64,000 nt of DNA from Minisyncoccota bacterium (GTDB lineage: Bacteria > Patescibacteriota > Minisyncoccia > Phycocordibacterales > UBA9973): positions 21,595 to 85,594 of the forward strand of contig DAONFW010000001.1 of the NCBI GenBank assembly GCA_035403785.1. The letters are read 5' to 3'. A program made the translations under genes and the position numbers. Below the pieces are notes generated by a model. The model was not told the origin of the DNA. It ran no database searches and saw nothing but the letters and a program-made list of their open reading frames with translations. Positions 1 through 38,898 of the stretch are shown here, piece after piece. Position 1 is the stretch's first letter; every line of letters begins with the position of its first letter.

Positions 1-58
1 TGGGGGGAGCCGGCAAAAAATGGAAAGGAAAATTTTTGGTTTTGGTTCCGACGCTTCA
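1..58. repeat. Left copy (truncated by window edge) of long inverted repeat X1; reverse complement of 4792..4850
   Basis: Read directly from the sequence: 1..58 equals the reverse complement of about 4792..4850 (ggaaccaaaaccaaaaattttcctttccattttttgccggctcccccc). The partner copy continues to 4995, so this copy presumably extends beyond the left window edge. Confidence 0.8.
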
Positions 59-360
59 TTCCTCCAGAAAGGACTTGTATTTATATTTTAGCATTGTGGC
101 GATATTTTGTCCGTCCTTTCCTCCGTCATTCGCGTCGGTGCGAGGCGCTCCCGTATCCGCGTTTTGTGGTAGTTCTATCGTCCTCTCACACTTCACAATC
201 ACCTCACATAGGCCGTTCGCATTCGCTCACGATGCCTGCTCGGTGCTTGCTTCGTGTTCGCTCCGTGACTTCGTTTAAGCCTGTGGTAACTCTAAAAAGC
301 GGATTGTGCTGAGGCACAAGCAAGTTTATATGTGCTTGCCCCACCCGCCCACGTGCGCGC

Positions 361-390
361 ACAGAAAACCACTCGCTAACGCGAGTGGCT
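361..390 (-). terminator. GC hairpin (ccactcgc-taac-gcgagtgg) just downstream of the minus-strand ORF that ends at 400
   Basis: Perfect 8-bp stem with a 4-nt loop. An A-run precedes it on the plus strand, which is a T-run on the minus strand. Confidence 0.4.
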
Positions 391-399
391 CCCTTGTGA

Positions 400-1737
400 T
401 CATTTAATCTTTAAGAACAAATCGGTAATACCTTTGAGTAAATTTTCATCCGGCACTAAATCTTTAAGCTCTTTTGCAAATGACAAGAAACTTTCCGTTT
501 CTTTTTCATTACTAGCATTCAATAATTCTATTTTTTCTTTCTCTTTCTTTACCTTTTTCCAATCAATAGATTTCTCGTAAGGTTCAGTATAAAGTTTCTC
601 AATGGTTTTCCTTATGAAGGTCGTAGTCTCACCGTCTGACCCCTTTTCTTTAATTTTTTGAATTAGGAAATCTGCGTGGTTGCGCATGACTTCGGCTACA
701 GTTGCCTTGAATGAATATTTTTCCTCTAAATCCCGCTCAGTACCATATCGTCTAATTGCAAAAGTAATCAAAAAGAGTAGTGGCGAAGTAAGCGTTAAGC
801 GATAGAACAGAGATTCCCATTTAGGAATTTCACCTCCATTATGCAAAAGAATTTCCTTTACATCAAAAATAAAATAGAGAAGGATAGAAAGAGCAACAAT
901 ACCCAACGAGAAAATCGCTAACCAAATATAGCTATTCCTGCGTAGTAATTTAGCCCTATTTTGAAACGAATTAGCAAAACCCGTGTCTGTAATGAGGTCT
1001 GCTATTTTTTCAACCTCGGATCGTTTTTCTGTCGCGATATCAAGATTCTTTTGTATGTCATCTCGCAGTTGTTCTGATTTTTTCTTATTCCCTTCGATCT
1101 CAGAAAGGTGTTTCTGTGATTGATCACGAAAAGACTGAATTTCTGTAGCAACAGCAGTTGCTTTTTTCTGCAAATCTTGAACTTGCGCAAGAACTGCTCC
1201 CAAGCCGGTATTCTGGTCAGTAATTTTTGCATTAACCGCGACAAATTCATTGTAGGCATTTTGAATTTGTGTGATTTTTTCTTGAACTTGCCCCAGTAAT
1301 TCATTAATTTTCCCTAACTGTTGCGTCGCGGTTGTTTTGGCTGTTTCAATATCTGTTCGCAGGTTATTAGCTGTCAGAACAAGTGACTCTATTTCTCCCT
1401 CTCTACCCTCGATTTTTCCTTTTATGTTTTCAAATTTACGCAAACCTTCATCAATCTGAGTAATACTGGATTGTGCTTTTTCAAGATTGCTTTTTATTTC
1501 TGCAACAAAAGTTGCGGAATCATTCTTTGCGTTCTCAATAGTCCCAAGTCGCTCCCGGGCATCGTTTGAGATTTTTTCGATCTCATTCTGTTTTGGTACA
1601 AGGGTTGCTTGTGTAGCTTCAAATTTAATTTGAAGTGCTGAAATTTTCTCCAAAATATCTTTGGCTTTGTTGTATTGGCTCTTGATGTTCCTTAATTCTT
1701 CAGGACTCAAGTTAAAATTGTCGTTTTCGTCTGGCAT
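400..1737 (-). CDS. Hypothetical coiled-coil protein with two central TM helices (possible 2TM effector or abortive-infection-like protein); island 1 cargo
   Basis: 445-aa ORF. The N-terminal ~270 aa are E/K/Q-rich heptad-like sequence. Two hydrophobic helices follow (IWLAIFSLGIVALSILLYFIF; LTLTSPLLFLITFAI), then a ~120-aa charged tail. No recognisable enzyme motif. The gene is divergent from the LexA-like gene. Confidence 0.6.
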   Translation of the reverse strand: MPDENDNFNLSPEELRNIKSQYNKAKDILEKISALQIKFEATQATLVPKQNEIEKISNDARERLGTIENAKNDSATFVAEIKSNLEKAQSSITQIDEGLRKFENIKGKIEGREGEIESLVLTANNLRTDIETAKTTATQQLGKINELLGQVQEKITQIQNAYNEFVAVNAKITDQNTGLGAVLAQVQDLQKKATAVATEIQSFRDQSQKHLSEIEGNKKKSEQLRDDIQKNLDIATEKRSEVEKIADLITDTGFANSFQNRAKLLRRNSYIWLAIFSLGIVALSILLYFIFDVKEILLHNGGEIPKWESLFYRLTLTSPLLFLITFAIRRYGTERDLEEKYSFKATVAEVMRNHADFLIQKIKEKGSDGETTTFIRKTIEKLYTEPYEKSIDWKKVKKEKEKIELLNASNEKETESFLSFAKELKDLVPDENLLKGITDLFLKIK

Positions 1738-1749
1738 AAATTAATTGTG

Positions 1750-1792
1750 GATAACCGGGGACTTGTTTAGGTTATCTTTAGGTATTATAATC
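1750..1792 (+). promoter_or_regulatory. Palindromic operator candidate GATAACC-N13-GGTTATC overlapping a -10-like TATTATAAT in the divergent promoter region
   Basis: Seen in sequence: gataaccggggacttgtttaggttatc, then tattataat 6 bp before the ATG at 1798. It lies between the divergent 400..1737 and lexA-like genes. Confidence 0.45.
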
Positions 1793-1797
1793 TAACT

Positions 1798-2424
1798 ATG
1801 AAAAAGAAGTCAAGCGTTGGAATAGGTAAACCGACAAAGCGGGAAGCTGAAATCCTACAATTCGCACGAGAGTATCGTCAAGAAAATGGATTCTCCCCCT
1901 CACTGGTTGAGATTGCTAAACATTTTAAGCGTTCCGTGCCCACAATTCATCAACATGTCTATTCTTTGCGAAGCAAGAACCTTCTTTTGATAGATAAGGG
2001 CAAAAAGCGTTCAATCAATGCTTTACATAATCACAGGGTTTCGGAAGTAATGATACCTCTAATGGGAATTATTTCTGCCGGTGGTCCAATTGAGGCCATC
2101 CGCGATCCAAAACCAGTAGAAGTTCCGCGAAGTATGCTTTCCCCCGGACATGACTACTACGCACTAAAGGTTTCCGGGCTGAGCATGATTGAGGAAGGAA
2201 TATCAGATGGAGACGTTGTGATTGTAAGAGATCAACCAACAGTAGATGACGGAGAAAAAGCAGTCGCGTATATGCCAGATAGAAACGAAGTAACGCTCAA
2301 AAAAATATACAGAGAAAAAGGTCGGATAAAACTTGTTCCAGCAAATCAAACCATGAAGCCGTTTTATGAATCAAACGTGGTCATTCAAGGAAAGGTCGTA
2401 GGAGTATTAAGAAAAGAATTTTAA
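1798..2424 (+). CDS. lexA: LexA-like repressor (N-terminal winged HTH plus C-terminal S24 peptidase with an Ala-Gly self-cleavage site)
   Basis: HTH region LVEIAKHFKRSVPTIHQHV. Cleavage-site-like ISAGGP. Ser nucleophile in GLSM and Lys in TLKKI. Length of 208 aa is typical. Confidence 0.75.
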   Translation: MKKKSSVGIGKPTKREAEILQFAREYRQENGFSPSLVEIAKHFKRSVPTIHQHVYSLRSKNLLLIDKGKKRSINALHNHRVSEVMIPLMGIISAGGPIEAIRDPKPVEVPRSMLSPGHDYYALKVSGLSMIEEGISDGDVVIVRDQPTVDDGEKAVAYMPDRNEVTLKKIYREKGRIKLVPANQTMKPFYESNVVIQGKVVGVLRKEF

Positions 2425-2433
2425 AATAAACTT

Positions 2434-4008
2434 ATGTCATTAGTAACAATACACGAAGCATCAAAATGGGCGACGGACTATCTTGAAAAAGAGGTATCGC
2501 CAACAAATATTTCTTACCTTGTTCAATATGGTAAGGTTAAGAAACTTGGAGAAAATGGGTCAACCCTTGTTGATTTGAATGATTTGAAAAAGTATTACGA
2601 ATCATGGAAAGGTAAACGAGAGATTGATTGGAAAAAACAACTTGGTGATGATTTAAACTGGGCGTTGTCTTTTGATAATCTCAGGGAAAAAGATACGACG
2701 AAGCATGTTCATAGATTACATCCATACAAAGGAAAATATATTCCGCAACTTGTTGAATATTTTATTGATTCCCACATTGATGATTTTAAAAAAGAAGTTT
2801 ATTTTAAAACCGGTGATATAGTCCTCGATCCTTTTCTGGGTTCAGGAACAACAATTATTCAATCACTAGAAATGGGTATCCATTCCGTGGGTATTGATGT
2901 GTCTGAGTTTAATTGCATGATTGCGAGTTGCAAGGCAACAAACTATGATCACGACTATTTGCAGAAAGCAATTAAAAAAATGCTCTCCGCAATAGATACT
3001 TTTGAGCATGATAATAGAATCCAAGAATTTGAAACAGAGTTGTTGGCAGAATTGGCAAAGTTTAATAACAAACATTTTCCCGGCTCAGATTTCAAATATA
3101 AAATAAATCAGGGAAATTTTGATGAAAAAAAGTTTTCTTCAGAAAAAGAAAGGGAGTTTTTGCCTACATATCAGAAATTACTCAAAAAATATTCAATAAA
3201 ACTGAAACAAGACAAAACTGAGTCATTTTTAGATACTTGGTTTATGGATAATGTGAGAAAAGAAATTGATCATGTTTTTAACACTATAAAACAAGAGAAG
3301 GATACAAAAACAAAAAAGATTCTCGCTCTAATTTTGAGCCGAACAATTAGATCGTGTCGAGCTACAACACACAGCGATCTTGCTACCCTAAAAGAACCTC
3401 AACTAACAACATATTATTGCTATAAGCACAAAAAGATTTGCAAACCGTTGTTTTCTATAAAAACAATGCTTAATCGTTACGCTTACGATACTGTTTCAAG
3501 GATCAAGGAATTTGAAAGGTTGCGAAAACCAGTTCATTATTCTGCTATTGCTGGTGATTCAAGAGTTGTGGATATTTTTGAAAAAGTTGAAAAGCAAAAC
3601 CCAGAGTTCGCAAAAATTCTTAAAAAACAAAAAATTTCAGGTATTTTCTGCTCGCCTCCATATGTTGGACAGATTGATTATCACGAACAACACGCCTACG
3701 CCTATGACTTGTTAGGATTTAAGAGAAAAGATGATCTAGAAATTGGCCCACTTTACAAAGGACAAGGACAAGAGGCACGCAGATCATACGCACAAGGAAT
3801 AGCCGATGTGCTAAATAACTGTAAGAAATATCTAAAAGATGATTACGATATTTTCCTTGTGGCAAACGATAAATATAATCTTTATCCAGAAATTGCTGAA
3901 AAATCTGGAATGAAGATTGTTAATCAATTTAAAAGACCTGTTTTGAATCGAACAGAACGGGACAGGAATCCATATTCCGAAATAATTTTTCATTTTAAAT
4001 CAATATAA
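2434..4008 (+). CDS. Type II DNA methyltransferase, amino-MTase (N6-adenine or N4-cytosine), alpha-class motif order
   Basis: Motif I DPFLGSGTT at about aa 135. Motif IV SPPY (IFCSPPYVGQIDY) at about aa 410, with a long intervening target-recognition region. Confidence 0.75.
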   Translation: MSLVTIHEASKWATDYLEKEVSPTNISYLVQYGKVKKLGENGSTLVDLNDLKKYYESWKGKREIDWKKQLGDDLNWALSFDNLREKDTTKHVHRLHPYKGKYIPQLVEYFIDSHIDDFKKEVYFKTGDIVLDPFLGSGTTIIQSLEMGIHSVGIDVSEFNCMIASCKATNYDHDYLQKAIKKMLSAIDTFEHDNRIQEFETELLAELAKFNNKHFPGSDFKYKINQGNFDEKKFSSEKEREFLPTYQKLLKKYSIKLKQDKTESFLDTWFMDNVRKEIDHVFNTIKQEKDTKTKKILALILSRTIRSCRATTHSDLATLKEPQLTTYYCYKHKKICKPLFSIKTMLNRYAYDTVSRIKEFERLRKPVHYSAIAGDSRVVDIFEKVEKQNPEFAKILKKQKISGIFCSPPYVGQIDYHEQHAYAYDLLGFKRKDDLEIGPLYKGQGQEARRSYAQGIADVLNNCKKYLKDDYDIFLVANDKYNLYPEIAEKSGMKIVNQFKRPVLNRTERDRNPYSEIIFHFKSI

Positions 4009-4012
4009 TTTT

Positions 4013-4795
4013 ATGGCACTATCAAAAGAACAAGTTAAAAATGTCGAGGATGTACTAAAAGCAAGTCTCAGAAACAAATTCCAAAATTACAAACCGGAAC
4101 CGGCTTCGATGCCATTCCATACTCGTCTTTTGGGTAAGGATAGATTGGCACTTTATTCATTTATCCATTCTCTCAATACTAATTTTGGAACAAGTATTTT
4201 TGAACCGGTCGGCTTAGCTTTGGCGCAAAAGAATTTCAAAATGGCTACATGCCAAGCTACTGCCGGAGATCGTATAAGCACCGGCGCACAAGCAGAAATA
4301 CAAAAAATTATTGATGGACTAACGACGGCAACATCATCACCAAACAAAAAAGAGGAAATTGAACGAATAAGAAAAGTTTGTCAGTCTGGTGAGATGATAA
4401 AAGCAAAACCTACCAAAGTAGATTTAATGTTTGAATCAAAAGACGGCGGTTATTATTTATTTGATATAAAAACAGCAAAACCTAATGCTGGAGGATTTAA
4501 GGAATTTAAACGAACACTACTTGAATGGGTCGCTGTGACTTTGGCGAACAATCCAAAAGCCGATATAAACACATTTATCGCAATTCCATATAATCCTTAC
4601 GAACCAGAGCCTTACACACGATGGACAATGCGTGGAATGCTTGATTTGGATAATGAGCTTAAAGTAGCTGATGAATTTTGGGATTTTCTTGGTGGTAAAG
4701 GCACATACAAAGATTTACTAGATTGTTTTGAACGAGTTGGAATTGAACTTCGTGGCGAAATAGATGACTACTTTAAGCGCTTCAATAAAAAATAA
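4013..4795 (+). CDS. Putative cognate type II restriction endonuclease
   Basis: The start lies 4 bp after the MTase stop on the same strand. There is a possible D..D-x-K catalytic signature (KDGGYYLFDIK). No other homology is recognisable by eye. Confidence 0.45.
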   Translation: MALSKEQVKNVEDVLKASLRNKFQNYKPEPASMPFHTRLLGKDRLALYSFIHSLNTNFGTSIFEPVGLALAQKNFKMATCQATAGDRISTGAQAEIQKIIDGLTTATSSPNKKEEIERIRKVCQSGEMIKAKPTKVDLMFESKDGGYYLFDIKTAKPNAGGFKEFKRTLLEWVAVTLANNPKADINTFIAIPYNPYEPEPYTRWTMRGMLDLDNELKVADEFWDFLGGKGTYKDLLDCFERVGIELRGEIDDYFKRFNKK

Positions 4796-4995
4796 GCGTC
4801 GGAACCAAAACCAAAAATTTTCCTTTCCATTTTTTGCCGGCTCCCCCCACACCCCCCGCCGAAAGAGGAATTGTAAGGAAAATTTTGGTTTTGGGATCGC
4901 GACCGAAGGGAGCGTGCGAGGCGCAAGTATCATTCGTCAAAATCCTGCGGATTTTGTCCGAAATACATTCGAACTTCGTCCAATACACACCGCCA
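4792..4995. repeat. Inverted repeat X1, right copy, ending in the CCGCCA core at 4990..4995
   Basis: 4792..4850 matches the reverse complement of 1..58. The distal 50 bp (ggattttgtccgaaatacattcgaacttcgtccaatacacaccgcca) is conserved with the end of X2 at 36857..36906. Confidence 0.65.
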
Positions 4996-5109
4996 AAATT
5001 GGAAATCGGAATCGGAAGCCGAAATGGGGTCGGCGCGAAGCGCCGACACAAACGCATTCCCGCCAAAAATTCCCGAATCCAAAAGGTTTTTCCACGCTCC
5101 GCGTGGCTC
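4990..5109. repeat. Inverted repeat Y1, copy A (120 bp, GC-rich, with internal hairpins)
   Basis: Appears to be a perfect reverse-complement match to 6512..6631 when read by eye in chunks. It contains the hairpins gtcggcgc-gaa-gcgccgac and ccacgc-tcc-gcgtgg. Confidence 0.85.
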
Positions 5110-5131
5110 TCTCGTTTGCCAATACAATTTT

Positions 5132-6730
5132 ATGAATAATCAAACCAAAAAGTTTTTCATATATACTCGCAAGTCTACGGATGACAAAGACAGACAAGTC
5201 CGCAGTATTGCAGACCAACTTTCTGAATTGAAAGAATTAGCAAGGAAAGAAGATTTAGATGTTGTTGATGTCTTTGTCGAAAAGCAGACCGCCAAAATAC
5301 CAGGTCGCCCAGTGTTTGGTGAGATGTTGGAGCGAATGGAGAAAGGCGAAGCCACTGGTATTTTGGCGTGGCATCCCGATAGACTTGCTCGCAACTCGAT
5401 AGACGGAGGAAAAGTCATCTACCTCGTTGACACCGGTGTCATTTCAGAAATGAAATTCCCAACTTTTTGGTTTGATCCGACACCGCAAGGCAAGTTTATG
5501 CTTTCAATCGCTTTTTCGCAGTCCAAGTATTATGTGGACAATTTGAGCGAAAATATTAAGCGTGGACATAGAAACAAAGTGAAAGAAGGAATATGGCCTC
5601 AAATGTCGCCGCTAGGATATATAAACGAGGGCGGGAAAATTGTCGTTGATGAAAATATCGCACCTTTAATCAAGAAAACATTTGAGGCATATTCGTCTGG
5701 GTCTTTCACTTTGCGACAACTTCGCGACAAATTTAATGAACTTGGATTGAAGCGAAAAAGCGGAAAGGAACTTGCGGTGTCGAATTATCAAAAACTTTTG
5801 AAAAACCCAATTTACACAGGTTTGATGTTGTATAACGGCGAGATACACGAAGGTAAGCACGAACCGATTATTACAAAGAAACTTTTTGATTCCGTTCAAG
5901 AAGTGATGATGAGAAAATCTAAACCGAAGTCGCGAGGATTGAAACCATTTTTGTACAGAGGATTTTTCCGTTGCGGAGAATGTAGTTGCTTCATTACCAC
6001 CGAAACACAGAAGGGTCATAATTATTTGCGATGTACCAAACGGAAAAATCCTTGTTCACAAAAATATACTCGTGAGGAAACCATCACTTCTGAAATTCAA
6101 AAGGAAATCAAAAAAGTTTCTTTGCCAGACGATTGGGCTTCTTGGATGTTAGTGGAAAATAGAAAAGATATATTGAGTGAAGCCCAATTGTCTACGCTTT
6201 TTGCAGACAACACAAAAGCCGATATTTCTCTTTTGGATTCTAAAATTGAGAAGCTGATGAACGCATATTTAGAGAACGCACTTTCGCTAGACGAGTATCG
6301 AGATATGAAAAACAAACTTGTGAACGAAAAACAGCTTCTCAAAGAGAAATTATCGGCTTTTGAGAAAAAAGCGAATAATCGGTTCGAACTTACCGAAAAG
6401 TTTTTGAAATACAATGTGGAATTGGCAAACGAGTGTACAAATGAAGAAAAACTTCATTTGTACAAAAAAGTCGGTTCGAACTTTCAAATTAAGGATCGAA
6501 CCGTACTTTTTGAGCCACGCGGAGCGTGGAAAAACCTTTTGGATTCGGGAATTTTTGGCGGGAATGCGTTTGTGTCGGCGCTTCGCGCCGACCCCATTTC
6601 GGCTTCCGATTCCGATTTCCAATTTTGGCGGAGGCGGAGGGATTCGAACCCTCGATGCCCTTTCAGACATACAGACTTTCCAGGTCTGCGCACTAGACCG
6701 CTATGCGACGCCTCCAAAATTTCTTATTAA
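5132..6730 (+). CDS. Large serine recombinase (resolvase/invertase catalytic domain, recombinase domain and zinc ribbon)
   Basis: The ATG at 5132 aligns with the paralog start MDNINLQTKKIFLYARKSTDE. Catalytic Ser is in YTRKSTDD. The Cys cluster FRCGECSCFITT...LRCTKRKNPC is present. Homology to the paralog ends near aa 465 (GSNFQIKDRTVLFEP). The last ~70 codons are encoded by repeat Y1 copy B and antisense tRNA-Ser, so the functional end is probably earlier than the ORF stop. Confidence 0.85.
   Translation: MNNQTKKFFIYTRKSTDDKDRQVRSIADQLSELKELARKEDLDVVDVFVEKQTAKIPGRPVFGEMLERMEKGEATGILAWHPDRLARNSIDGGKVIYLVDTGVISEMKFPTFWFDPTPQGKFMLSIAFSQSKYYVDNLSENIKRGHRNKVKEGIWPQMSPLGYINEGGKIVVDENIAPLIKKTFEAYSSGSFTLRQLRDKFNELGLKRKSGKELAVSNYQKLLKNPIYTGLMLYNGEIHEGKHEPIITKKLFDSVQEVMMRKSKPKSRGLKPFLYRGFFRCGECSCFITTETQKGHNYLRCTKRKNPCSQKYTREETITSEIQKEIKKVSLPDDWASWMLVENRKDILSEAQLSTLFADNTKADISLLDSKIEKLMNAYLENALSLDEYRDMKNKLVNEKQLLKEKLSAFEKKANNRFELTEKFLKYNVELANECTNEEKLHLYKKVGSNFQIKDRTVLFEPRGAWKNLLDSGIFGGNAFVSALRADPISASDSDFQFWRRRRDSNPRCPFRHTDFPGLRTRPLCDASKISY
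6512..6631. repeat. Inverted repeat Y1, copy B, overlapping the recombinase 3' end and abutting the tRNA-Ser 3' end
   Basis: Reverse complement of 4990..5109. Its last 6 nt (tggcgg) are the terminal CCGCCA of the tRNA. Confidence 0.85.
6626..6715 (-). tRNA. tRNA-Ser (anticodon GGA), class II with a long variable arm
   Basis: Reverse complement reads GGAGGCG-TC-GCAT...; anticodon stem-loop CAGAC-CTGGAAA-GTCTG; T arm GAGGGTTCGAATCCCTC; acceptor CGCCTCC-G-CCA. Length 90 nt. Confidence 0.85.
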
Positions 6731-6731
6731 A

Positions 6732-7274
6732 TTATACTTTTTTGTATGCCAAAAAAGTCTTTTTTAGTTTAAATGATTCTTTAGAAAAAATCCACTTATT
6801 TAAAGCAGGGCTAACAGTCAAAGCAAAACCAATATTTCCCGCTAGATGCAAAATAGTGAAAGGTATTTGTAATGCTAAAGCAGTTAGAATAGTCTGGCCA
6901 AAAATAGGCGCGACCAAAACACCAGTTATTAAGTCATAAAAAATGGTTGAAACTATCGCAAATACTGCAAAATTCAAAACAGAAGTTTTATATTTTTTAA
7001 AATAAAAAGTAGCTACTACTCCGATCAAACCATAAGTAATTCCGGTAATCCAAGTCCATGAACCAAAATGAGTTACAGCATCGTAAAGGAAAATACTCAA
7101 AAATCCAAAAAGAAAACTCAAAACCGCGCCGTATTTCTTGCTTACAGGCATCACAGAAGCCATAATTGGCTCTAAATTTGGAGCTCTAAACGGAACCAAT
7201 CTGAACAAAAAACAACCCAAGAATATTGCAAAAATTTTTGATTTTTCTTTAATAAAATTTGTCATGGAATTCAA
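6732..7274 (-). CDS. Polytopic membrane protein of unknown function (about 5 TM helices)
   Basis: Hydrophobic helices run throughout and there is no soluble domain. The true start may be an internal Met. Confidence 0.5.
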   Translation of the reverse strand: MNSMTNFIKEKSKIFAIFLGCFLFRLVPFRAPNLEPIMASVMPVSKKYGAVLSFLFGFLSIFLYDAVTHFGSWTWITGITYGLIGVVATFYFKKYKTSVLNFAVFAIVSTIFYDLITGVLVAPIFGQTILTALALQIPFTILHLAGNIGFALTVSPALNKWIFSKESFKLKKTFLAYKKV

Positions 7275-7316
7275 TTATAATCTTTCAAAAAAAATCCGGC
7301 AATCTGGACATTTTTT

Positions 7317-9356
<2,040 letters not shown>

Positions 9357-34176: not shown

Positions 34177-34267
34177 ATTTAAAATTTAAAATATCTAATA
34201 GTTAGATAAACTAAATATTATCATAAAGTTATTTTTTGTGCAAATAGAATAATTATTGAATTTAAAA

Positions 34268-34462
34268 ATCTGGCGGTGTTTTTTGGACGAAGTTCGAACG
34301 TTTTTTGACGAAAATCCTGAAAACTAATTTGGACTCGGCGGGGCAAACTATTTTTCTGGGGGAATGGAATTGCCCCGCCTCGGCTTTCTTCCCGCCCGCA
34401 GGAGGGGTCTGGGGAGGAATGCGGGCGGGTTTTTGAACCTTTCCTTTTTCGCTTCCGAATTT
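34268..34462. repeat. Inverted repeat X2, left copy (about 195 bp, GC-rich), starting with a tggcgg core
   Basis: Perfect reverse complement of 36712..36906 read by eye. The sequence at 34463..34480 differs from its partner, but each version is itself an 18-bp palindrome. Confidence 0.85.
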
Positions 34463-34493
34463 CGTGCCAGTTGAAAACTGGCGCGCCACCTAT

Positions 34494-35477
34494 TTAACTA
34501 TTTTTTAAATCACTCATTATTTTTTTTGCCAAGTGATGAGCAAAATTTACTGCAACAGCATTTCCAATCATTTTATAACCGTCAGCAATATCACGATATT
34601 TGAAAATAAAATCATCGGGAAATGTTTGTATTCTTGCACACTCACGAACAGACAAACGGCGGTATAATTGTTCTTTTCCGGGAACAAAAATTCTTTTATT
34701 TTGTTCAATAAATTTCATTTTTGGTGCTTGTGGGTGAATTGGTGCGTGGCGACCACCAGCTTGAATTGTGAAAGAAGGCTCGTCCCAAGAACGGACACGA
34801 TTTCGCGACATATAAATCGTTGAGAAACCGCCATTCATATATTCATGGTTTGGAATTTTCAACTCGTCGCCGTTTGTCTTGTTTTTATCTTTAGCTGGTT
34901 TTGCTAAACGCAAATCAAAAATAGCGTCTTTCAAAACAGGTTTATATTTTTGTGGTTCTGGAAATTCAAATTTCTTTTTTAATTTTTTATGATAACCAAC
35001 AATAATAACGCGAAGCCTATCCTCTGGAACATCATAATCATTTGCGTTTAGAAGTTTGCAAGAAATTACATATCCGGCATTTTCAAATTCCTTGATTATA
35101 TTTGAAAATGCCTCTTTGTGTTTTGGGTGTAAAATCCCCGATACATTTTCTGCAAGAAAAAATTTTGGCTGTTTTTCTTTCAATAAACGAATGTAGTCAT
35201 AAAATAATTGACCTCGCTTGTCGTTTATTCCACGCCCAGCACCAGCCTCACTCCAACTTTGGCAAGGAGGTCCGCCAATAATTCCGTCAACATCGGGGAT
35301 TTCAGACGCTGGAACATCAACAATACTTCTCTTGTCTAATTTTGTTTTTGGAAAATTATACTCAAATGTTTCCCAAATTGTCGGGTCGTATTCATTCGCC
35401 CAAACGACATGAAAACCAGCTCTTTCAAAGCCTAAATCTAACCCACCCGCACCTGTAAATAAAGAAGCTAATTTCAT
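34494..35477 (-). CDS. dcm: DNA (cytosine-5)-methyltransferase
   Basis: Motif I LFTGAGGLDLGF. Motif IV GGPPCQSWS. Motif VI ENV. Motif X GNAVAVN. Confidence 0.9.
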   Translation of the reverse strand: MKLASLFTGAGGLDLGFERAGFHVVWANEYDPTIWETFEYNFPKTKLDKRSIVDVPASEIPDVDGIIGGPPCQSWSEAGAGRGINDKRGQLFYDYIRLLKEKQPKFFLAENVSGILHPKHKEAFSNIIKEFENAGYVISCKLLNANDYDVPEDRLRVIIVGYHKKLKKKFEFPEPQKYKPVLKDAIFDLRLAKPAKDKNKTNGDELKIPNHEYMNGGFSTIYMSRNRVRSWDEPSFTIQAGGRHAPIHPQAPKMKFIEQNKRIFVPGKEQLYRRLSVRECARIQTFPDDFIFKYRDIADGYKMIGNAVAVNFAHHLAKKIMSDLKNS

Positions 35478-35478
35478 A

Positions 35479-36327
35479 TTATTTTCTAAAACTCAATAAT
35501 TTCGCCTCAAGCAATTTTGCTGGATTATTTGGCGATTTTATTTTTATATCTTTAATTAAAAAGTTATCACTAACTAAACTTTCAAGATGTTTTCTGTCTT
35601 TTTCTGGAAAAGACAAATATTTTTCTTTCAGCAAAATTGCATTAACAAAAAATTCAGAATTTTGCTCTGCCGGAACAACATAATCAAAAACTTTTATAGG
35701 ATTTTCAATTCCCCACATTCCACGAATACGCAAATATGTTATTCCAAGAGGATCAACGCGATTTACTCTGCCGAGTTCGTTTGTTTCCGAAAATTCAACA
35801 TCTTGTAATTCATTAACACCTTTTGAAATTTTATCTCTTATTCTTTCGTAAACTTCTTTATTTGCGGAATAACAATTACCATAAACAAGCCACAAGGCTT
35901 TTAGCTTGTCATCTTTTGAAACTCCAACAACATAAACTAAATCTTTTTCCCGCCAATCCTCACAATTTTTGCAAGCAGTGGTTATCATCGGACTATCAGA
36001 AAATAGTTTGTCTTTAGGATACGAACTATTAAGTGCAATTCCCGAACGCAAACTTTCAATTTTCTTAACTTCTATCGCATCACCTTGCTTGATAATAATG
36101 TCTGGCGGATTATTTTGATTTCCAATATAAGAAAAATATTTGCTGTAAATTTCATTTTTCTTTTCAAGATTATTTTCATTTAGGGAATTGCAAAATAAGT
36201 CTTTGATATAAAATTCTAAAGCGTCGCCCATACTGTTTGCTCGGTTGGCAGCACGATAATGAGAAACCAAATTTGTAATTGGATTTTTGACTAAATTTGA
36301 TATTGCGATAAGTAAATTTGTTTCCAT
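35479..36327 (-). CDS. Type II restriction endonuclease (PD-(D/E)xK fold), cognate of the m5C MTase
   Basis: PPDIIIKQGDAIEVKK fits PD-x10-ExK. It is 1 bp upstream of dcm on the same strand. Confidence 0.55.
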   Translation of the reverse strand: METNLLIAISNLVKNPITNLVSHYRAANRANSMGDALEFYIKDLFCNSLNENNLEKKNEIYSKYFSYIGNQNNPPDIIIKQGDAIEVKKIESLRSGIALNSSYPKDKLFSDSPMITTACKNCEDWREKDLVYVVGVSKDDKLKALWLVYGNCYSANKEVYERIRDKISKGVNELQDVEFSETNELGRVNRVDPLGITYLRIRGMWGIENPIKVFDYVVPAEQNSEFFVNAILLKEKYLSFPEKDRKHLESLVSDNFLIKDIKIKSPNNPAKLLEAKLLSFRK

Positions 36328-36331
36328 AGTT

Positions 36332-36526
36332 TTATTTTATTAAATCCTCAATCGGCACATTAAGTGCCTTCGCGATTTTTTTAATTGTATCAATAGTTGG
36401 ATTTTGTTGTTTGCCTGCCTCGATATTGATTATCGTATTATTGGAAACATCAGCAAGACGGGCTAGTTTTTCTTGCGACAAACCCATTTTTTCTCTTATT
36501 CGTTTGATTTTGCTTGACTCTACCAT
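36332..36526 (-). CDS. Controller (C) protein, XRE-family HTH
   Basis: 64-aa HTH (LSQEKLARLADVSNNTIINIEAGK). It lies immediately upstream of the REase gene. Confidence 0.7.
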   Translation of the reverse strand: MVESSKIKRIREKMGLSQEKLARLADVSNNTIINIEAGKQQNPTIDTIKKIAKALNVPIEDLIK

Positions 36527-36556
36527 ATTAAAATAGTAATATTAAATTGTGGTATA

Positions 36557-36600
36557 ATAATTATATGCTTCAACAAAATAACCACAATATAATATTACCA
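36557..36600 (-). promoter_or_regulatory. Candidate C-box operator palindrome (TTGTGGT ... ACCACAA) upstream of the C-protein gene
   Basis: Seen in sequence: attgtggtataataattatatgcttcaacaaaataaccacaat. Confidence 0.4.
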
Positions 36601-36711
36601 AAATATTTCGACTTCGTAAAGAAAAAAGGGAGTTCCTTAGCGTTGCCCGCGAATGGGTTGGGTGGGTCAAGGGCAACATCTCTTTTGGTGGCGCATTTTG
36701 CTTTGCAAAAT

Positions 36712-36906
36712 ACGAAATTCGGAAGCGAAAAAGGAAAGGTTCAAAAACCCGCCCGCATTCCTCCCCAGACCCCTCCTGCGGGCGGGAAGAAAGCCGAGGC
36801 GGGGCAATTCCATTCCCCCAGAAAAATAGTTTGCCCCGCCGAGTCCAAATTAGTTTTCAGGATTTTCGTCAAAAAACGTTCGAACTTCGTCCAAAAAACA
36901 CCGCCA
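36712..36906. repeat. Inverted repeat X2, right copy, ending in the CCGCCA core (36901..36906)
   Basis: Reverse complement of 34268..34462. Confidence 0.85.
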
Positions 36907-37034
36907 AGTTTTACATTCAGCGAAATTGAAAGATGTTGCCTCGGCGCAAAGCGCCTCGGCATGGTATTTTTCCGCAATTTTGAAGGCATTTTTGAAATCC
37001 AAAACCAAAGTGCGGTCGGCAATGCGGAAGTTCG
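36901..37034. repeat. Inverted repeat Y2, copy A (about 133 bp)
   Basis: Perfect reverse complement of 38518..38650 read by eye. It contains the ggcgc-aaa-gcgcc hairpin. Confidence 0.85.
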
Positions 37035-37148
37035 CCGTGCAAAGCACGGGCAAAATGAAATTTTGCAAACCAATCTTTTTTCTTTCGCTTTCGGCGAAAG
37101 GTTGAGCGTATTTTTCTTTGATTGCCCAAAAACTAATTTCAAAACAAT

Positions 37149-38702
37149 ATGGACAACATAAATTTACAAACCAAAAAGATTTTTCTCTATGCCCGTAAAT
37201 CCACGGACGAACCCGAAAGGCAGGTTTTGAGTATTGAGGCGCAAATGTTTGAATTGCGGGAATTTGCGAAAAAAGAAGGACTAAATATCGTCCGTGAATT
37301 TGTGGAAAGCAAAACCGCCAAAGAGCCGGGGCGTGAGATTTTTAACGAAATGATCACAAGCATAGAGAAAAATGAAGCAGAGGGAATTTTAGCGTGGCAC
37401 CCCGACCGCCTCGCTCGAAATAGCATAGACGGCGGACGAATAATCTATTTCGTAGATACTGGCAAAATTACCACGCTAAAATTTCCAACTTTTTGGTTTG
37501 ATCCGACACCGCAGGGAAAATTTATGTTGAGTATCGCTTTTGGGCAATCAAAATATTATGTGGATAATCTTTCGGAAAATATAAAGAGGGGTATTCGCCA
37601 GAAATTGCGAAATGGAATATGGCCCGCTTGGGCGCCACTTGGGTATGTGAACGACAAGAACGCCCGCTGTATTGCCGTGGACAAGGAAAAGGCAAAGTAT
37701 ATCAAGCGGGCTTTTGAAATGTACGCGACTGGCGAATACCCCCTCGCTCAAATCCGAAAGATTATCAATTCCTTGGGCTTGGTTGGCAAGAAAGGCAAAA
37801 TGCTTTCCGTCTCAAATTATCAGTATATGCTGAAAAATAAAATCTATTACGGAATGATTGAATATAACGGCGAATTGTATGACGGAAAGCACGAACCGAT
37901 TATCACAAAGAGACTTTTTGATTTATGCCAAGAAGTGATGATGAATAAGTCAAAACCGAAAACACCAAAACTCAAGCCATACATTTTTAGAGGATTTTTC
38001 CGTTGTGGGGAGTGCGGTTGTTTCATTACCACCGAAACGCAAAAAGGTCATAACTATTTGCGATGTACGAAACGGAAAAATCCTTGTTCGCAAAGGTATG
38101 TAAGAGAGGACGCCATCACTTCTCAAATTAAAGAGGAAATCAAAAAAGTTTCTTTGTCTTCCGCTTGGGCAAACGCTTCAATCAATTATTTTGAAAATGA
38201 AAAAATGAAACTTGCCCAAGCGGAAAGCTCTTTCGCCCAAGAAGCGAGAAATGAGCTTGTAGAGATAGAAACAAAACTTGATCGTTTGCTTGATTTACAA
38301 CTGGACGGCAGTTTGTCGCAAGCAGAATATACCGCTAAAAAGCACAAGCTCATTCTCGCCAAAAAGGATTTGGAAGAAAAAATCACTGCTTTTGGGCGAA
38401 AGAGCAATAATCGGTTCGAACTTACCATTGCCTTTCTAAAAGACGCCAACCAAGCCGAAAAATACGCTCAACAAGAAAATCCCGAAAGGATTCGGGATTT
38501 TCTCAAAAAGATTGGTTCGAACTTCCGCATTGCCGACCGCACTTTGGTTTTGGATTTCAAAAATGCCTTCAAAATTGCGGAAAAATACCATGCCGAGGCG
38601 CTTTGCGCCGAGGCAACATCTTTCAATTTCGCTGAATGTAAAACTTGGCGGAGACGGCGGGATTCGAACCCGCGATGGGTTTTGAAGCCCATGCCTCTTT
38701 AG
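37149..38702 (+). CDS. Large serine recombinase (paralog of 5132..6730)
   Basis: YARKSTDEPERQ catalytic motif. Zinc ribbon FRCGECGCFITT...LRCTKRKNPCSQ. The C-terminal tail is encoded by repeat Y2 copy B and then antisense tRNA-Ser, giving WRRRRDSNPR as in the paralog. Confidence 0.85.
   Translation: MDNINLQTKKIFLYARKSTDEPERQVLSIEAQMFELREFAKKEGLNIVREFVESKTAKEPGREIFNEMITSIEKNEAEGILAWHPDRLARNSIDGGRIIYFVDTGKITTLKFPTFWFDPTPQGKFMLSIAFGQSKYYVDNLSENIKRGIRQKLRNGIWPAWAPLGYVNDKNARCIAVDKEKAKYIKRAFEMYATGEYPLAQIRKIINSLGLVGKKGKMLSVSNYQYMLKNKIYYGMIEYNGELYDGKHEPIITKRLFDLCQEVMMNKSKPKTPKLKPYIFRGFFRCGECGCFITTETQKGHNYLRCTKRKNPCSQRYVREDAITSQIKEEIKKVSLSSAWANASINYFENEKMKLAQAESSFAQEARNELVEIETKLDRLLDLQLDGSLSQAEYTAKKHKLILAKKDLEEKITAFGRKSNNRFELTIAFLKDANQAEKYAQQENPERIRDFLKKIGSNFRIADRTLVLDFKNAFKIAEKYHAEALCAEATSFNFAECKTWRRRRDSNPRWVLKPMPL
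38518..38650. repeat. Inverted repeat Y2, copy B, abutting the tRNA-Ser 3' end
   Basis: Reverse complement of 36901..37034. Confidence 0.85.
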
Positions 38703-38737
38703 CAAAGAGGTACGTTAGACCACTCTGACACGTCTCC
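38646..38737 (-). tRNA. tRNA-Ser (anticodon GCU), class II
   Basis: Reverse complement reads GGAGACG...; anticodon loop CCTCT-TTGCTAA-AGAGG; long variable arm; GGTTCGAATCC T-loop; CCA is encoded. Confidence 0.85.
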
Positions 38738-38809: not shown

Positions 38810-38898
38810 GGAGGCGTGGATGAGTGGTTTAAATCAACGGTTTACTAAACCGTCGTACCCTAACCGGTACCGTGAGTTCGAATCTCACCGCCTCCGCA
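38810..38898 (+). tRNA. Class II (Ser-type) tRNA with apparent anticodon ACU (unusual A34); possible tRNA-Ser variant or pseudo-tRNA
   Basis: Acceptor GGAGGCG/CGCCTCC. D-stem GAT/ATC with GG in the loop. Anticodon arm ACGGT-TTACTAA-ACCGT. Variable arm GTACC-CTAACC-GGTAC. T arm GTGAG-TTCGAAT-CTCAC. The 3' CCA is not fully encoded (GCAG). Confidence 0.6.

Follow-up and report, generated by a model that had tools for sequence, protein, structure and literature searches.

Organization of the locus

The stretch analysed here (the window) comprises 64,000 nucleotides of contig DAONFW010000001.1 (positions 21,595 to 85,594) from a Minisyncoccota bacterium (GCA_035403785.1), and the analysis concerned a cassette at its left end in which the gene for a LexA-family repressor heads a Type II restriction-modification (R-M) operon. 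The repressor gene is followed on the same strand by the genes for a DNA methyltransferase (MTase) and a restriction endonuclease (REase), and a gene encoding a 445-residue protein, termed cc445, lies divergently on the other side of a short intergenic region. The cassette is bordered by inverted repeats (IR), with a large serine recombinase gene and a tRNA-Ser gene beyond its right end (Table 1). A preliminary description of this DNA had listed the four open reading frames (ORFs) of the cassette, the tight packing of the three rightward genes and the flanking repeats. All of these were recovered, with gaps of 9 nt between the LexA and MTase genes and 4 nt between the MTase and REase genes, and with a left repeat arm of which a part is visible in the window.

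Table 1. Positions of the cassette, its promoter elements and its carrier within the window
Feature	Position	Strand	Description
IR-A left arm, visible part	1..56		100% complementary to 4794-4849; continues past window start
Conserved non-coding backbone	57..399	-	terminator-like hairpin just past cc445 stop
cc445, 445 aa, variable cargo gene	400..1737	-	ORF and AlphaFold2 (AF2) model
TGTGGATAA box	1746..1754	+	reverse complement of DnaA-box consensus TTATCCACA; upstream of -35
Rightward promoter	1763..1791	+	TTGTTT (1763-1768), 17-nt spacer, TATAAT (1786-1791)
Candidate LexA operator	1766..1783	+	TTTAGGT-TATC-TTTAGGT, period 11; in rightward spacer, over predicted leftward start
Leftward (cargo) promoter	1784..1813	-	TTGACT (1813-1808), 18-nt spacer, TATAAT (1789-1784)
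LexA-family repressor, 208 aa	1798..2424	+	winged-helix DNA-binding domain and S24 autopeptidase
LexA key residues	Ala94-Gly95 2077-2082; Ser129 2182-2184; Lys168 2299-2301	+	alignment
Type II DNA methyltransferase, 524 aa	2434..4008	+	Pfam N6_N4_Mtase, 4.9e-15
TdeIII-family Type II restriction endonuclease	4013..4795	+	PF09520 RE_TdeIII, E 8.5e-96, whole profile; 82-100% identical in related loci
IR-A right arm 'a', about 210 nt	4791..5000		internal hairpin 4802-4831/4869-4898; ends in att-like core
att-like core CCGCCAAAATT	4990-5000		end of IR-A right arm
IR-B left arm 'r'	4990..5109		120 nt, 100% complementary to 6512-6631
Large serine recombinase	5132..6730	+	Resolvase, Recombinase and Zn_ribbon_recom domains
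tRNA-Ser(GGA)	6626..6715	-	3' end (CCGCCA) within att core; island/host junction

The repressor and the restriction-modification genes

The repressor was assigned to the LexA family by profile (LexA_DNA_bind, 9e-8, and Peptidase_S24, 1.7e-24; PF01726 at 32 bits against a cutoff of 23.7 and PF00717 at 86 bits against 23.3), and it passed the NCBIfam lexA model TIGR00498 with 149 bits (cutoff 111). In alignment, A94-G95, S129 and K168 corresponded to A84-G85, S119 and K156 of Escherichia coli LexA and were invariant in 16 homologues, in agreement with the Ala-Gly site and Ser/Lys dyad described earlier. As this site and dyad are strictly conserved, self-cleavage of the repressor is predicted.

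The MTase gave a full-length match to the PADLOC profile MTase_II PDLC03249 (E 5e-233), and its translation contained motif I (DPFLGSGTT), a long middle region and motif IV (SPPY), in that order. The 260-residue product of the third gene, previously a putative endonuclease, was assigned to the TdeIII endonuclease family by its match over the full RE_TdeIII profile. On motifs and family, the MTase and the adjacent REase are thus predicted to form a Type II R-M system. Avoidance of palindromic words was used as a guess at the recognition site. In positions 7001-34000 and 39001-64000 of the window, GGCC occurred at 0.72 of expectation and GGATCC was observed once against 6.8 expected, both with small counts; these depletions may be traces of restriction avoidance.

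A conserved and mobile LexA-MTase-REase unit

The relatives of the window's LexA formed more than 120 clusters (at 90% identity), 71-97% identical, many of them on contigs about 5 kb long. Scanning one genome for each species yielded 26 LexA loci spanning Paceibacteria, Minisyncoccia, Gottesman-, Roizman- and Saccharibacteria, Gracilibacteria and Nomurabacteria, and every one of the close LexA relatives came from Patescibacteria. An MTase gene was found downstream of lexA in every close locus (at least 72% identity) with sequence beyond lexA. The same MTase (82-99% identity) and the same REase (85-100%) were present in 16 loci. Overall, about 20 species-representative genomes of different Patescibacteria classes kept the three genes together. 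The host flanks of the related loci had nothing in common with the window. LexA proteins 73-97% identical in distant classes and in different contexts indicated horizontal spread of the unit. In two loci (L028 and L029) the MTase and REase were 98-99% identical to those of the window but the LexA only 73%; therefore, the LexA-MTase-REase module is itself mosaic. No relatives were found when viral contigs were scanned with the LexA and with the cc445 profile, so that a phage origin is unsupported.

LexA-MTase fusions and the wider family

A metagenome scan with the LexA profile gave 80 loci with 40-92% identity. Among these, 28 relatives (40-51% identity, from loci L061-L115) were single ORFs of 450-630 aa, and all 28 combined LexA_DNA_bind, Peptidase_S24 and a DNA MTase. 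The MTase parts came from four unrelated families (N6_N4, 17; D12, 10; C5, 2; N6_Mtase/Eco57I/MmeI, 2), and the Ala-Gly site, the Ser and the Lys were invariant throughout the 28 fusions. When one fusion was used as query, 4520 proteins were retrieved at E<=1e-30, and the best 120 of these all had the three-domain architecture. The fusion family was mostly from Microgenomates and Parcubacteria, and public records name its members either 'LexA' or 'methylase'.

Almost every fusion had a tail-to-tail neighbour gene, and 6 of the 9 convergent neighbours tested were REases of the BsaWI or MvaI/BcnI families. In one locus (L035, 5634-7229) the fusion stood beside a controller (C) protein and a BglII-type REase; this was the only related locus with a true C protein. 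As for the 23 other unfused relatives, about 15 had an MTase gene after them and the remainder had genes such as SecA in this place; those without an adjacent MTase presumably are chromosomal. In a rough neighbour-joining tree the operon-type and fused LexAs grouped together, apart from the LexAs without an MTase link. Conservation of the LexA/R-M linkage while the unit moves, together with the MTase fusions, indicates that the link is functional. No paper describing LexA-headed R-M operons or LexA-MTase fusions was found in the literature searchable here, and LexA wiring of R-M appears to be a widespread variant of R-M control that is undescribed in the literature searched.

The bidirectional promoter and the candidate operator

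The promoters of 34 related loci could be aligned and followed the pattern TG(T/G)GGATAAC, 2-6 variable nt, CTTGTTTAGGTTAT(C/G)TTTAGGTA(G/T)TATA(A/C)T, 6-8 nt, ATG. Within it, the rightward promoter block was invariant or near-invariant in the 34 loci. The rightward -10 ends 6 nt upstream of the lexA ATG, and transcription is predicted to start at or near the A of this ATG (1798), which would give a leaderless lexA-MTase-REase mRNA. The leftward promoter was the best promoter-like site in positions 1-7400, matching at 11 of 12 positions. The two -10 elements overlap, and the leftward -35 is located within lexA codons 4-6, where nearly all related loci kept AGTCAA in their DNA sequence.

None of the 52 window genes had a Shine-Dalgarno (SD)-like motif, which suggests that leaderless or SD-independent translation is widespread in the host organism. 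The lack of such a motif before cc445, read in the preliminary description as a sign of tight regulation, is therefore a trait of the organism. Several window genes had their ATG 6-8 nt downstream of a TATAAT.

The TTTAGGT-N4-TTTAGGT direct repeat in the rightward spacer was the sole such site in the 64 kb. It was conserved in the 34 promoters, and its flanks varied. When exact 7-mer direct repeats were counted in 99 upstream regions, 116 positions had period 11, compared to no more than 5 at any other period from 8 to 14. The repeat word changed with the LexA subtype. In promoters of more distant LexAs this position was taken by TTCGGT, TTCGT or TTCTA repeats (e.g. TGTTCGGTAAATGTTCGGTATAAT), the clade of LexAs without an MTase link had candidate operators of the TTCGGT type, and GTTC-N7-GTTC-like repeats (TGTTCGGTAAATGTTCGGT) were seen in promoters of distant relatives. 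The Patescibacteria SOS network was reportedly studied by Sanchez-Osuna, Barbe and Erill in 2017, and that work may already describe the direct-repeat motif. Direct-repeat LexA motifs such as GTTC-N7-GTTC of the Alphaproteobacteria are an established class (PMC8565304). From these patterns we consider it highly probable that LexA regulates its own promoter through the period-11 repeat. As the predicted leftward start (about 1777) falls within the repeat, both promoters could be shut from a single site.

A different operator had been put forward in the preliminary description, namely a GATAACC-N13-GGTTATC palindrome. The palindrome is present (1750-1756 and 1770-1776) and consists of the TGTGGATAAC box plus GGTTATC, the latter within the first repeat unit. 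However, its arm spacing ranged from N9 to N13 in the 34 promoters, its right arm was broken (GGTTATG) in about half of them, and perfect 7-bp inverted repeats with 5-20 nt spacers were common (272 in the window, about 0.25 per 60 nt). It was rejected as operator, the direct repeat being the better candidate. In the leftward transcript the palindrome may fold into a hairpin at the 5' end.

The TGTGGATAA box was near-invariant in the 34 aligned promoters. The DnaA-box 9-mer was found, in either orientation, in 51 of the 99 LexA upstream regions versus 18 hits in 749 kb of background, and it preceded the -35 of both LexA and LexA-MTase promoters (upstream regions, L009-L120). A DnaA-box near LexA promoters may serve as an input of replication state or as the site of another factor.

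Predicted regulation of the R-M operon

Taken together, the gene order, the conserved residues and the promoter architecture suggest that LexA is probably a dedicated autorepressor of the R-M operon and of the divergent cargo gene, released by RecA-stimulated self-cleavage; for the dependence on RecA as such we see a chance slightly better than even. According to this proposal, a LexA dimer would bind TTTAGGT-N4-TTTAGGT (1766-1783), and this one operator would hold down both the R-M operon and cc445 through the overlapping promoters, of which the leftward would be the stronger. The repressor would cleave itself once filaments of RecA on single-stranded DNA form. DNA damage would then lead to higher expression of the MTase and the endonuclease and would switch on the cargo gene. 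The damage could arise from endonuclease breaks in under-methylated host DNA or in incoming phage DNA, and the circuit could serve to feed back on methylation after self-restriction, to induce a back-up defence when restriction leaves DNA ends, or both.

Several observations weigh against this proposal. Only 3 of 6 positions match in the rightward -35, a weak element, and this promoter was not listed by the consensus scan, so its assignment rests on conservation. Conservation of the TGTGGATAA box equals that of the direct repeat, and the box could be part of the operator or the site of another factor. No recA was present among the genes of the 64-kb window, and the cargo protein cc445 has no recognisable effector domain. 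Furthermore, induction of a co-transcribed MTase and REase raises the endonuclease too, to which a protective methylation feedback fits less well; such feedback is a better fit to the fused, convergent arrangements than to co-transcribed genes.

The repressor might instead be the ordinary SOS LexA of the cell, with R-M and defence genes that settled beside it or were recruited into the SOS regulon. It passed the TIGR00498 equivalog model, NCBI labels its relatives 'transcriptional repressor LexA', and no second lexA was seen within the 64-kb window. Moreover, lexA duplication accompanied by motif divergence and then takeover has been documented (PMC8565304). However, the gene moves horizontally with the MTase and REase genes into unrelated contexts and is located inside a recombinase-bounded island at a tRNA gene, no further operator-like repeat was found in the 64 kb, and the relatives unlinked to an MTase form their separate clade with TTCGGT-type operators. 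The MTase fusions likewise show that the association was selected. On these grounds we consider an ordinary SOS LexA unlikely. The earlier suggestion that the host lexA was simply captured between the repeats did not hold either, as this LexA belongs to the MTase-linked clade and always travels with an MTase.

Another reading takes LexA as a substitute for a C protein, an autorepressor adjusting R-M expression in a newly entered host, with no role for RecA or damage and with the S24 domain serving only dimerisation or slow turnover. The position at the head of the operon is that of controller proteins, the mRNA would be leaderless and autoregulated from a candidate operator in its own promoter, and MTases that regulate themselves through an N-terminal DNA-binding domain are well established. 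That cleavage is irrelevant is nevertheless hard to square with the Ala-Gly site and Ser/Lys dyad, which stay invariant in relatives of the operon and fused types with as little as 40% identity, and a plain repressor gives no delay between MTase and REase. We give this reading the same low probability as an ordinary SOS LexA, and a dedicated LexA autorepressor responding to damage remains the preferred explanation.

The divergent cargo gene

The cc445 protein is predicted to consist of an N-terminal coiled coil of about 255 aa, a hairpin of two transmembrane (TM) helices and a helical C-terminal domain. The AF2 model (mean predicted local distance difference test score, pLDDT, 69) shows two TM helices preceded by three long helices and followed by a helical tail, and thus matches the coiled coil, two TM helices and tail described before. 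No family beyond coiled-coil noise was found for cc445 in Pfam, PADLOC, PHROG or NCBIfam. The best Foldseek match of the model in the PDB had an E of 0.067 and the matches were generic coiled coils, a PDB profile search gave a similar result, and the C-terminal 196 aa matched nothing in Pfam at E<=10. The 2-TM domain belongs to a broader uncharacterised family of 528 relatives (phmmer, 1.8 billion representatives), ten of which were compared with Pfam and gave no family above cutoff.

The cc445 homologues formed about 65 clusters, nearly all from Patescibacteria. Among the roughly 24 close loci, cc445 was confined to L020 and the contigs of the window itself, which does not agree with its presumed role as an integral partner of LexA (2 of about 24). 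In L035, L038 and L040, homologues were also carried by mobile or defence islands, those of L038 and L040 being recombinase and R-M islands. In L020 (3244-3922) and L035 (7314-7994), a gene for 98 aa and a GIY-YIG-like gene (126-149 aa) precede cc445, which suggests a three-gene cargo unit of which only the last gene, cc445, is kept in the window.

Other genes occupied the divergent slot in relatives, including those for ThsB-TIR, a pPIWI-associated-nuclease-like protein, SMODS, SMODS with AGS_C, patatin, HNH, an SDH ClpP-like protease, DUF5343, a metallo-beta-lactamase-fold protein and ThiF/DUF6791. In relatives, the slot does hold defence-type genes, in line with the defence context envisaged earlier.

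It has also been considered that cc445 and LexA form a damage-triggered abortive infection (Abi) or addiction pair with cc445 as a pore-forming toxin. The divergent promoter shares the candidate operator, Abi-type effectors (patatin, TIR, SMODS) fill the slot in relatives, cc445 homologues are on defence or mobile islands, and the modelled architecture contains two TM helices. Yet cc445 was absent from about 22 of the 24 close loci, and the proposed resemblance to pore-forming or Abi effectors found no match, in sequence or in fold, to a described effector or pore family. It is moreover the third gene of a three-gene cargo in L020 and L035 and for this reason may need partners. We therefore regard a cc445-LexA toxin pair as quite improbable, less so only than the alternative discussed below for the island as a whole, and keep to a LexA autorepressor whose cargo gene is variable. 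Of the defence module on a mobile element that the preliminary description had envisaged, the R-M coupling, the mobility and the defence context are retained, and its operator and cc445 as partner are not.

Past the cc445 stop, the G+C-rich backbone of about 340 nt (57-399) was 80-92% identical in L009, L010, L021, L028 and L029 whatever the cargo. Its terminator-like hairpin has a stem at 369-376/381-388 and a U-tract at 361-368. Compensatory changes were seen in the 57-399 hairpin, and G-U pairs favoured the minus strand. The region had no Rfam match, and its fold z-score of -0.81 was not significant. A structured RNA was thus not established by the few compensatory pairs.

The carrier element

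The G+C content was about 34% across the window, which contains ligA, recG and other housekeeping genes, and slightly higher in the cassette (0.37-0.41). The RecG was 80% identical to its counterpart in a Nomurabacteria metagenome-assembled genome (L023). An Rfam scan of positions 1-7400 detected tRNA only.

In two further contigs with the same cassette (L004 and L005), the IR-A left arm reached a length of 185 nt or more, matching 4791-4975 in reverse complement. The IR-B left arm is an inverted copy of the last approximately 120 nt of the recombinase ORF; the last 40 codons of the recombinase are thus duplicated in inverted orientation just 5' of its own start. A transcript across both IR-B copies could form a 120-bp panhandle. 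The 3' end of the recombinase gene includes the IR-B right arm (6512-6631) and extends, in antisense orientation, into the tRNA gene, and a paralogue with 56% identity is encoded at 37149-38702.

The core CCGCCAAAATT was found at three types of junction, a|r at 4995, tRNA|r at 6626 and a|z in L004 (z being a response-regulator flank), which behave as attP-, attL- and attR-like sites. The L004 contig (ERZ27257423 k141_1200462) carries a cassette 99.96% identical to that of the window and matches it up to 5000, where at the att core a host flank with response regulator, PAS, histidine kinase and TruB genes replaces the recombinase. A DnaA-box also adjoins the att core in this flank (ATTGTGGATAAC). 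The orientation of the cassette relative to its flanks was opposite in L004 and in the window, either from a real inversion between the repeats or from an ambiguity of short-read assembly.

The double-repeat design was also present in L009, L021 and L023, with arms 94-98% identical, and in a second island of the window (34265-38737). The latter has repeats of 201 nt (34265-34465/36712-36912) and 134 nt (36901-37034/38518-38651). The 201-nt repeat brackets a C5 MTase gene (34494-35477) and an NgoPII-family REase gene (35479-36327), with no LexA gene, and the 134-nt repeat brackets the recombinase gene 37149-38702, abutting tRNA-Ser(GCT). Its recurrence in these three loci and in the second island indicates that the double-repeat design is biological and no assembly artefact. 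A 204-aa ORF at 36547-37161 overlaps a repeat of the second island and probably is spurious. A tRNA-Ser with the unusual anticodon ACT, divergent from tRNA-Ser(GCT), was found at 38810-38897, and its position was kept in the related Nomurabacteria genome (L023, 13116-13203).

Excision at the outer sites would yield a circle in which two inverted, att-bearing repeats divide a cargo arc from a recombinase arc. Such a layout would be like that of the yeast 2-micron plasmid and may allow recombinase-driven flipping.

Since the cassette is carried by an integrative element that encodes a large serine recombinase, LexA might act as the master repressor of the island, like lambda CI or SetR of SXT. 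It would then place excision or transfer of the element under the SOS response, and the R-M genes would be passengers. S24 repressors govern many mobile elements, and the protein had a PHROG 'transcriptional repressor' match. However, there was no operator-like repeat near the recombinase gene, the LexA-MTase-REase unit was kept in many loci without an adjacent recombinase, the second island combines the same recombinase arrangement with an R-M pair but lacks LexA, and no relative was seen in the viral contigs scanned. This makes a master repressor of the island the least probable of the alternatives, and very improbable in itself; control of the R-M operon and its cargo by LexA is the better explanation.

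Significance and comparison with known systems

R-M systems balance the killing of invaders against cutting of the cell's own chromosome. The known devices for their control are C proteins, DNA-binding extensions of MTases and antisense RNAs. A self-cleaving LexA, if its role in R-M control is true, would be a fourth device and one that senses DNA damage. The fusion family by itself has thousands of members. Such a device suggests a testable feedback in which breaks lead to activated RecA, then to repressor cleavage, and finally to more methylase and further defences. To our knowledge, the candidate phyla radiation (CPR)/Patescibacteria largely lack CRISPR and rely on R-M. A broader picture would be that R-M in Patescibacteria is wired to RecA through a radiation of free and fused LexAs, combining break feedback, a second-line gene, a DnaA-box input and a circular carrier. 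In this picture, DNA breaks, whether caused by self-restriction or by the cutting of phage DNA, would act back on methylation and restriction; in cassettes of the window's kind, they would in addition trigger the shared bidirectional promoter and with it a second-line defence gene. For all of these parts jointly we put forward this picture tentatively, with a chance clearly below even. In annotation, many 'LexA' genes of Patescibacteria probably are R-M controllers and not SOS master regulators. The private repressor/operator pairs (TTTAGGT, TTCGGT and TTCTA types) are possible orthogonal damage-inducible switches.

In gene order there is a parallel with C-protein systems such as C.PvuII, C.AhdI, C.Esp1396I and C.BamHI, in which a small regulator gene likewise heads or precedes the R-M genes and is autoregulated from an operator overlapping its own promoter. 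The pvuIIC mRNA is leaderless, as is predicted here for the lexA mRNA. C proteins are Xre-type helix-turn-helix (HTH) proteins of about 80 aa that use paired C-box palindromes, whereas the window encodes a LexA winged-helix protein with an S24 autopeptidase and carries a candidate period-11 direct repeat; no C-box-like paired palindrome was found in the LexA promoters aligned from 34 loci. The predicted control here also differs in being repression only, in its input of DNA damage and in the same operator lying over a divergent cargo promoter.

M.SsoII, M.EcoRII and M.MspI are MTases with an N-terminal autoregulatory DNA-binding domain. The wider family resembles these enzymes (M.SsoII/M.Ecl18kI, M.EcoRII, M.MspI and M.ScrFIA) in having the regulator N-terminal to the MTase with the REase gene adjacent and often convergent. 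The fused module is, in contrast, a complete cleavable LexA, whose cleavage would detach the DNA-binding domain, and in the window LexA and MTase are separate genes. SOS LexA is similar in domain architecture, catalytic residues and self-regulation, the last predicted here. The window subfamily differs from it in its TTTAGGT repeats, its mobile cassette and in having its own bidirectional promoter as the only candidate target in the sequence available.

CapH/CapP of CBASS (cyclic oligonucleotide-based antiphage signalling system) is a DNA-damage-responsive defence regulator. BrxR/CapW regulators of the WYL type and CapH/CapP also are repressors beside varied defence systems for which release on DNA damage is proposed. 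BrxR/WYL regulators are encoded beside varied defence systems (PMC9122589, PMC9122601). The differences are ligand binding by WYL or cleavage by a partner metallopeptidase in those systems compared to predicted S24 self-cleavage here, and the core regulated system, which here is a classical Type II R-M system. Finally, lambda CI and SetR of SXT/R391 share with this LexA a self-cleaving repressor (predicted in our case), an integrative element and a divergent promoter, but they have an Xre HTH, whereas the repressor described here has a LexA winged helix and is linked to an MTase and not to a recombinase.

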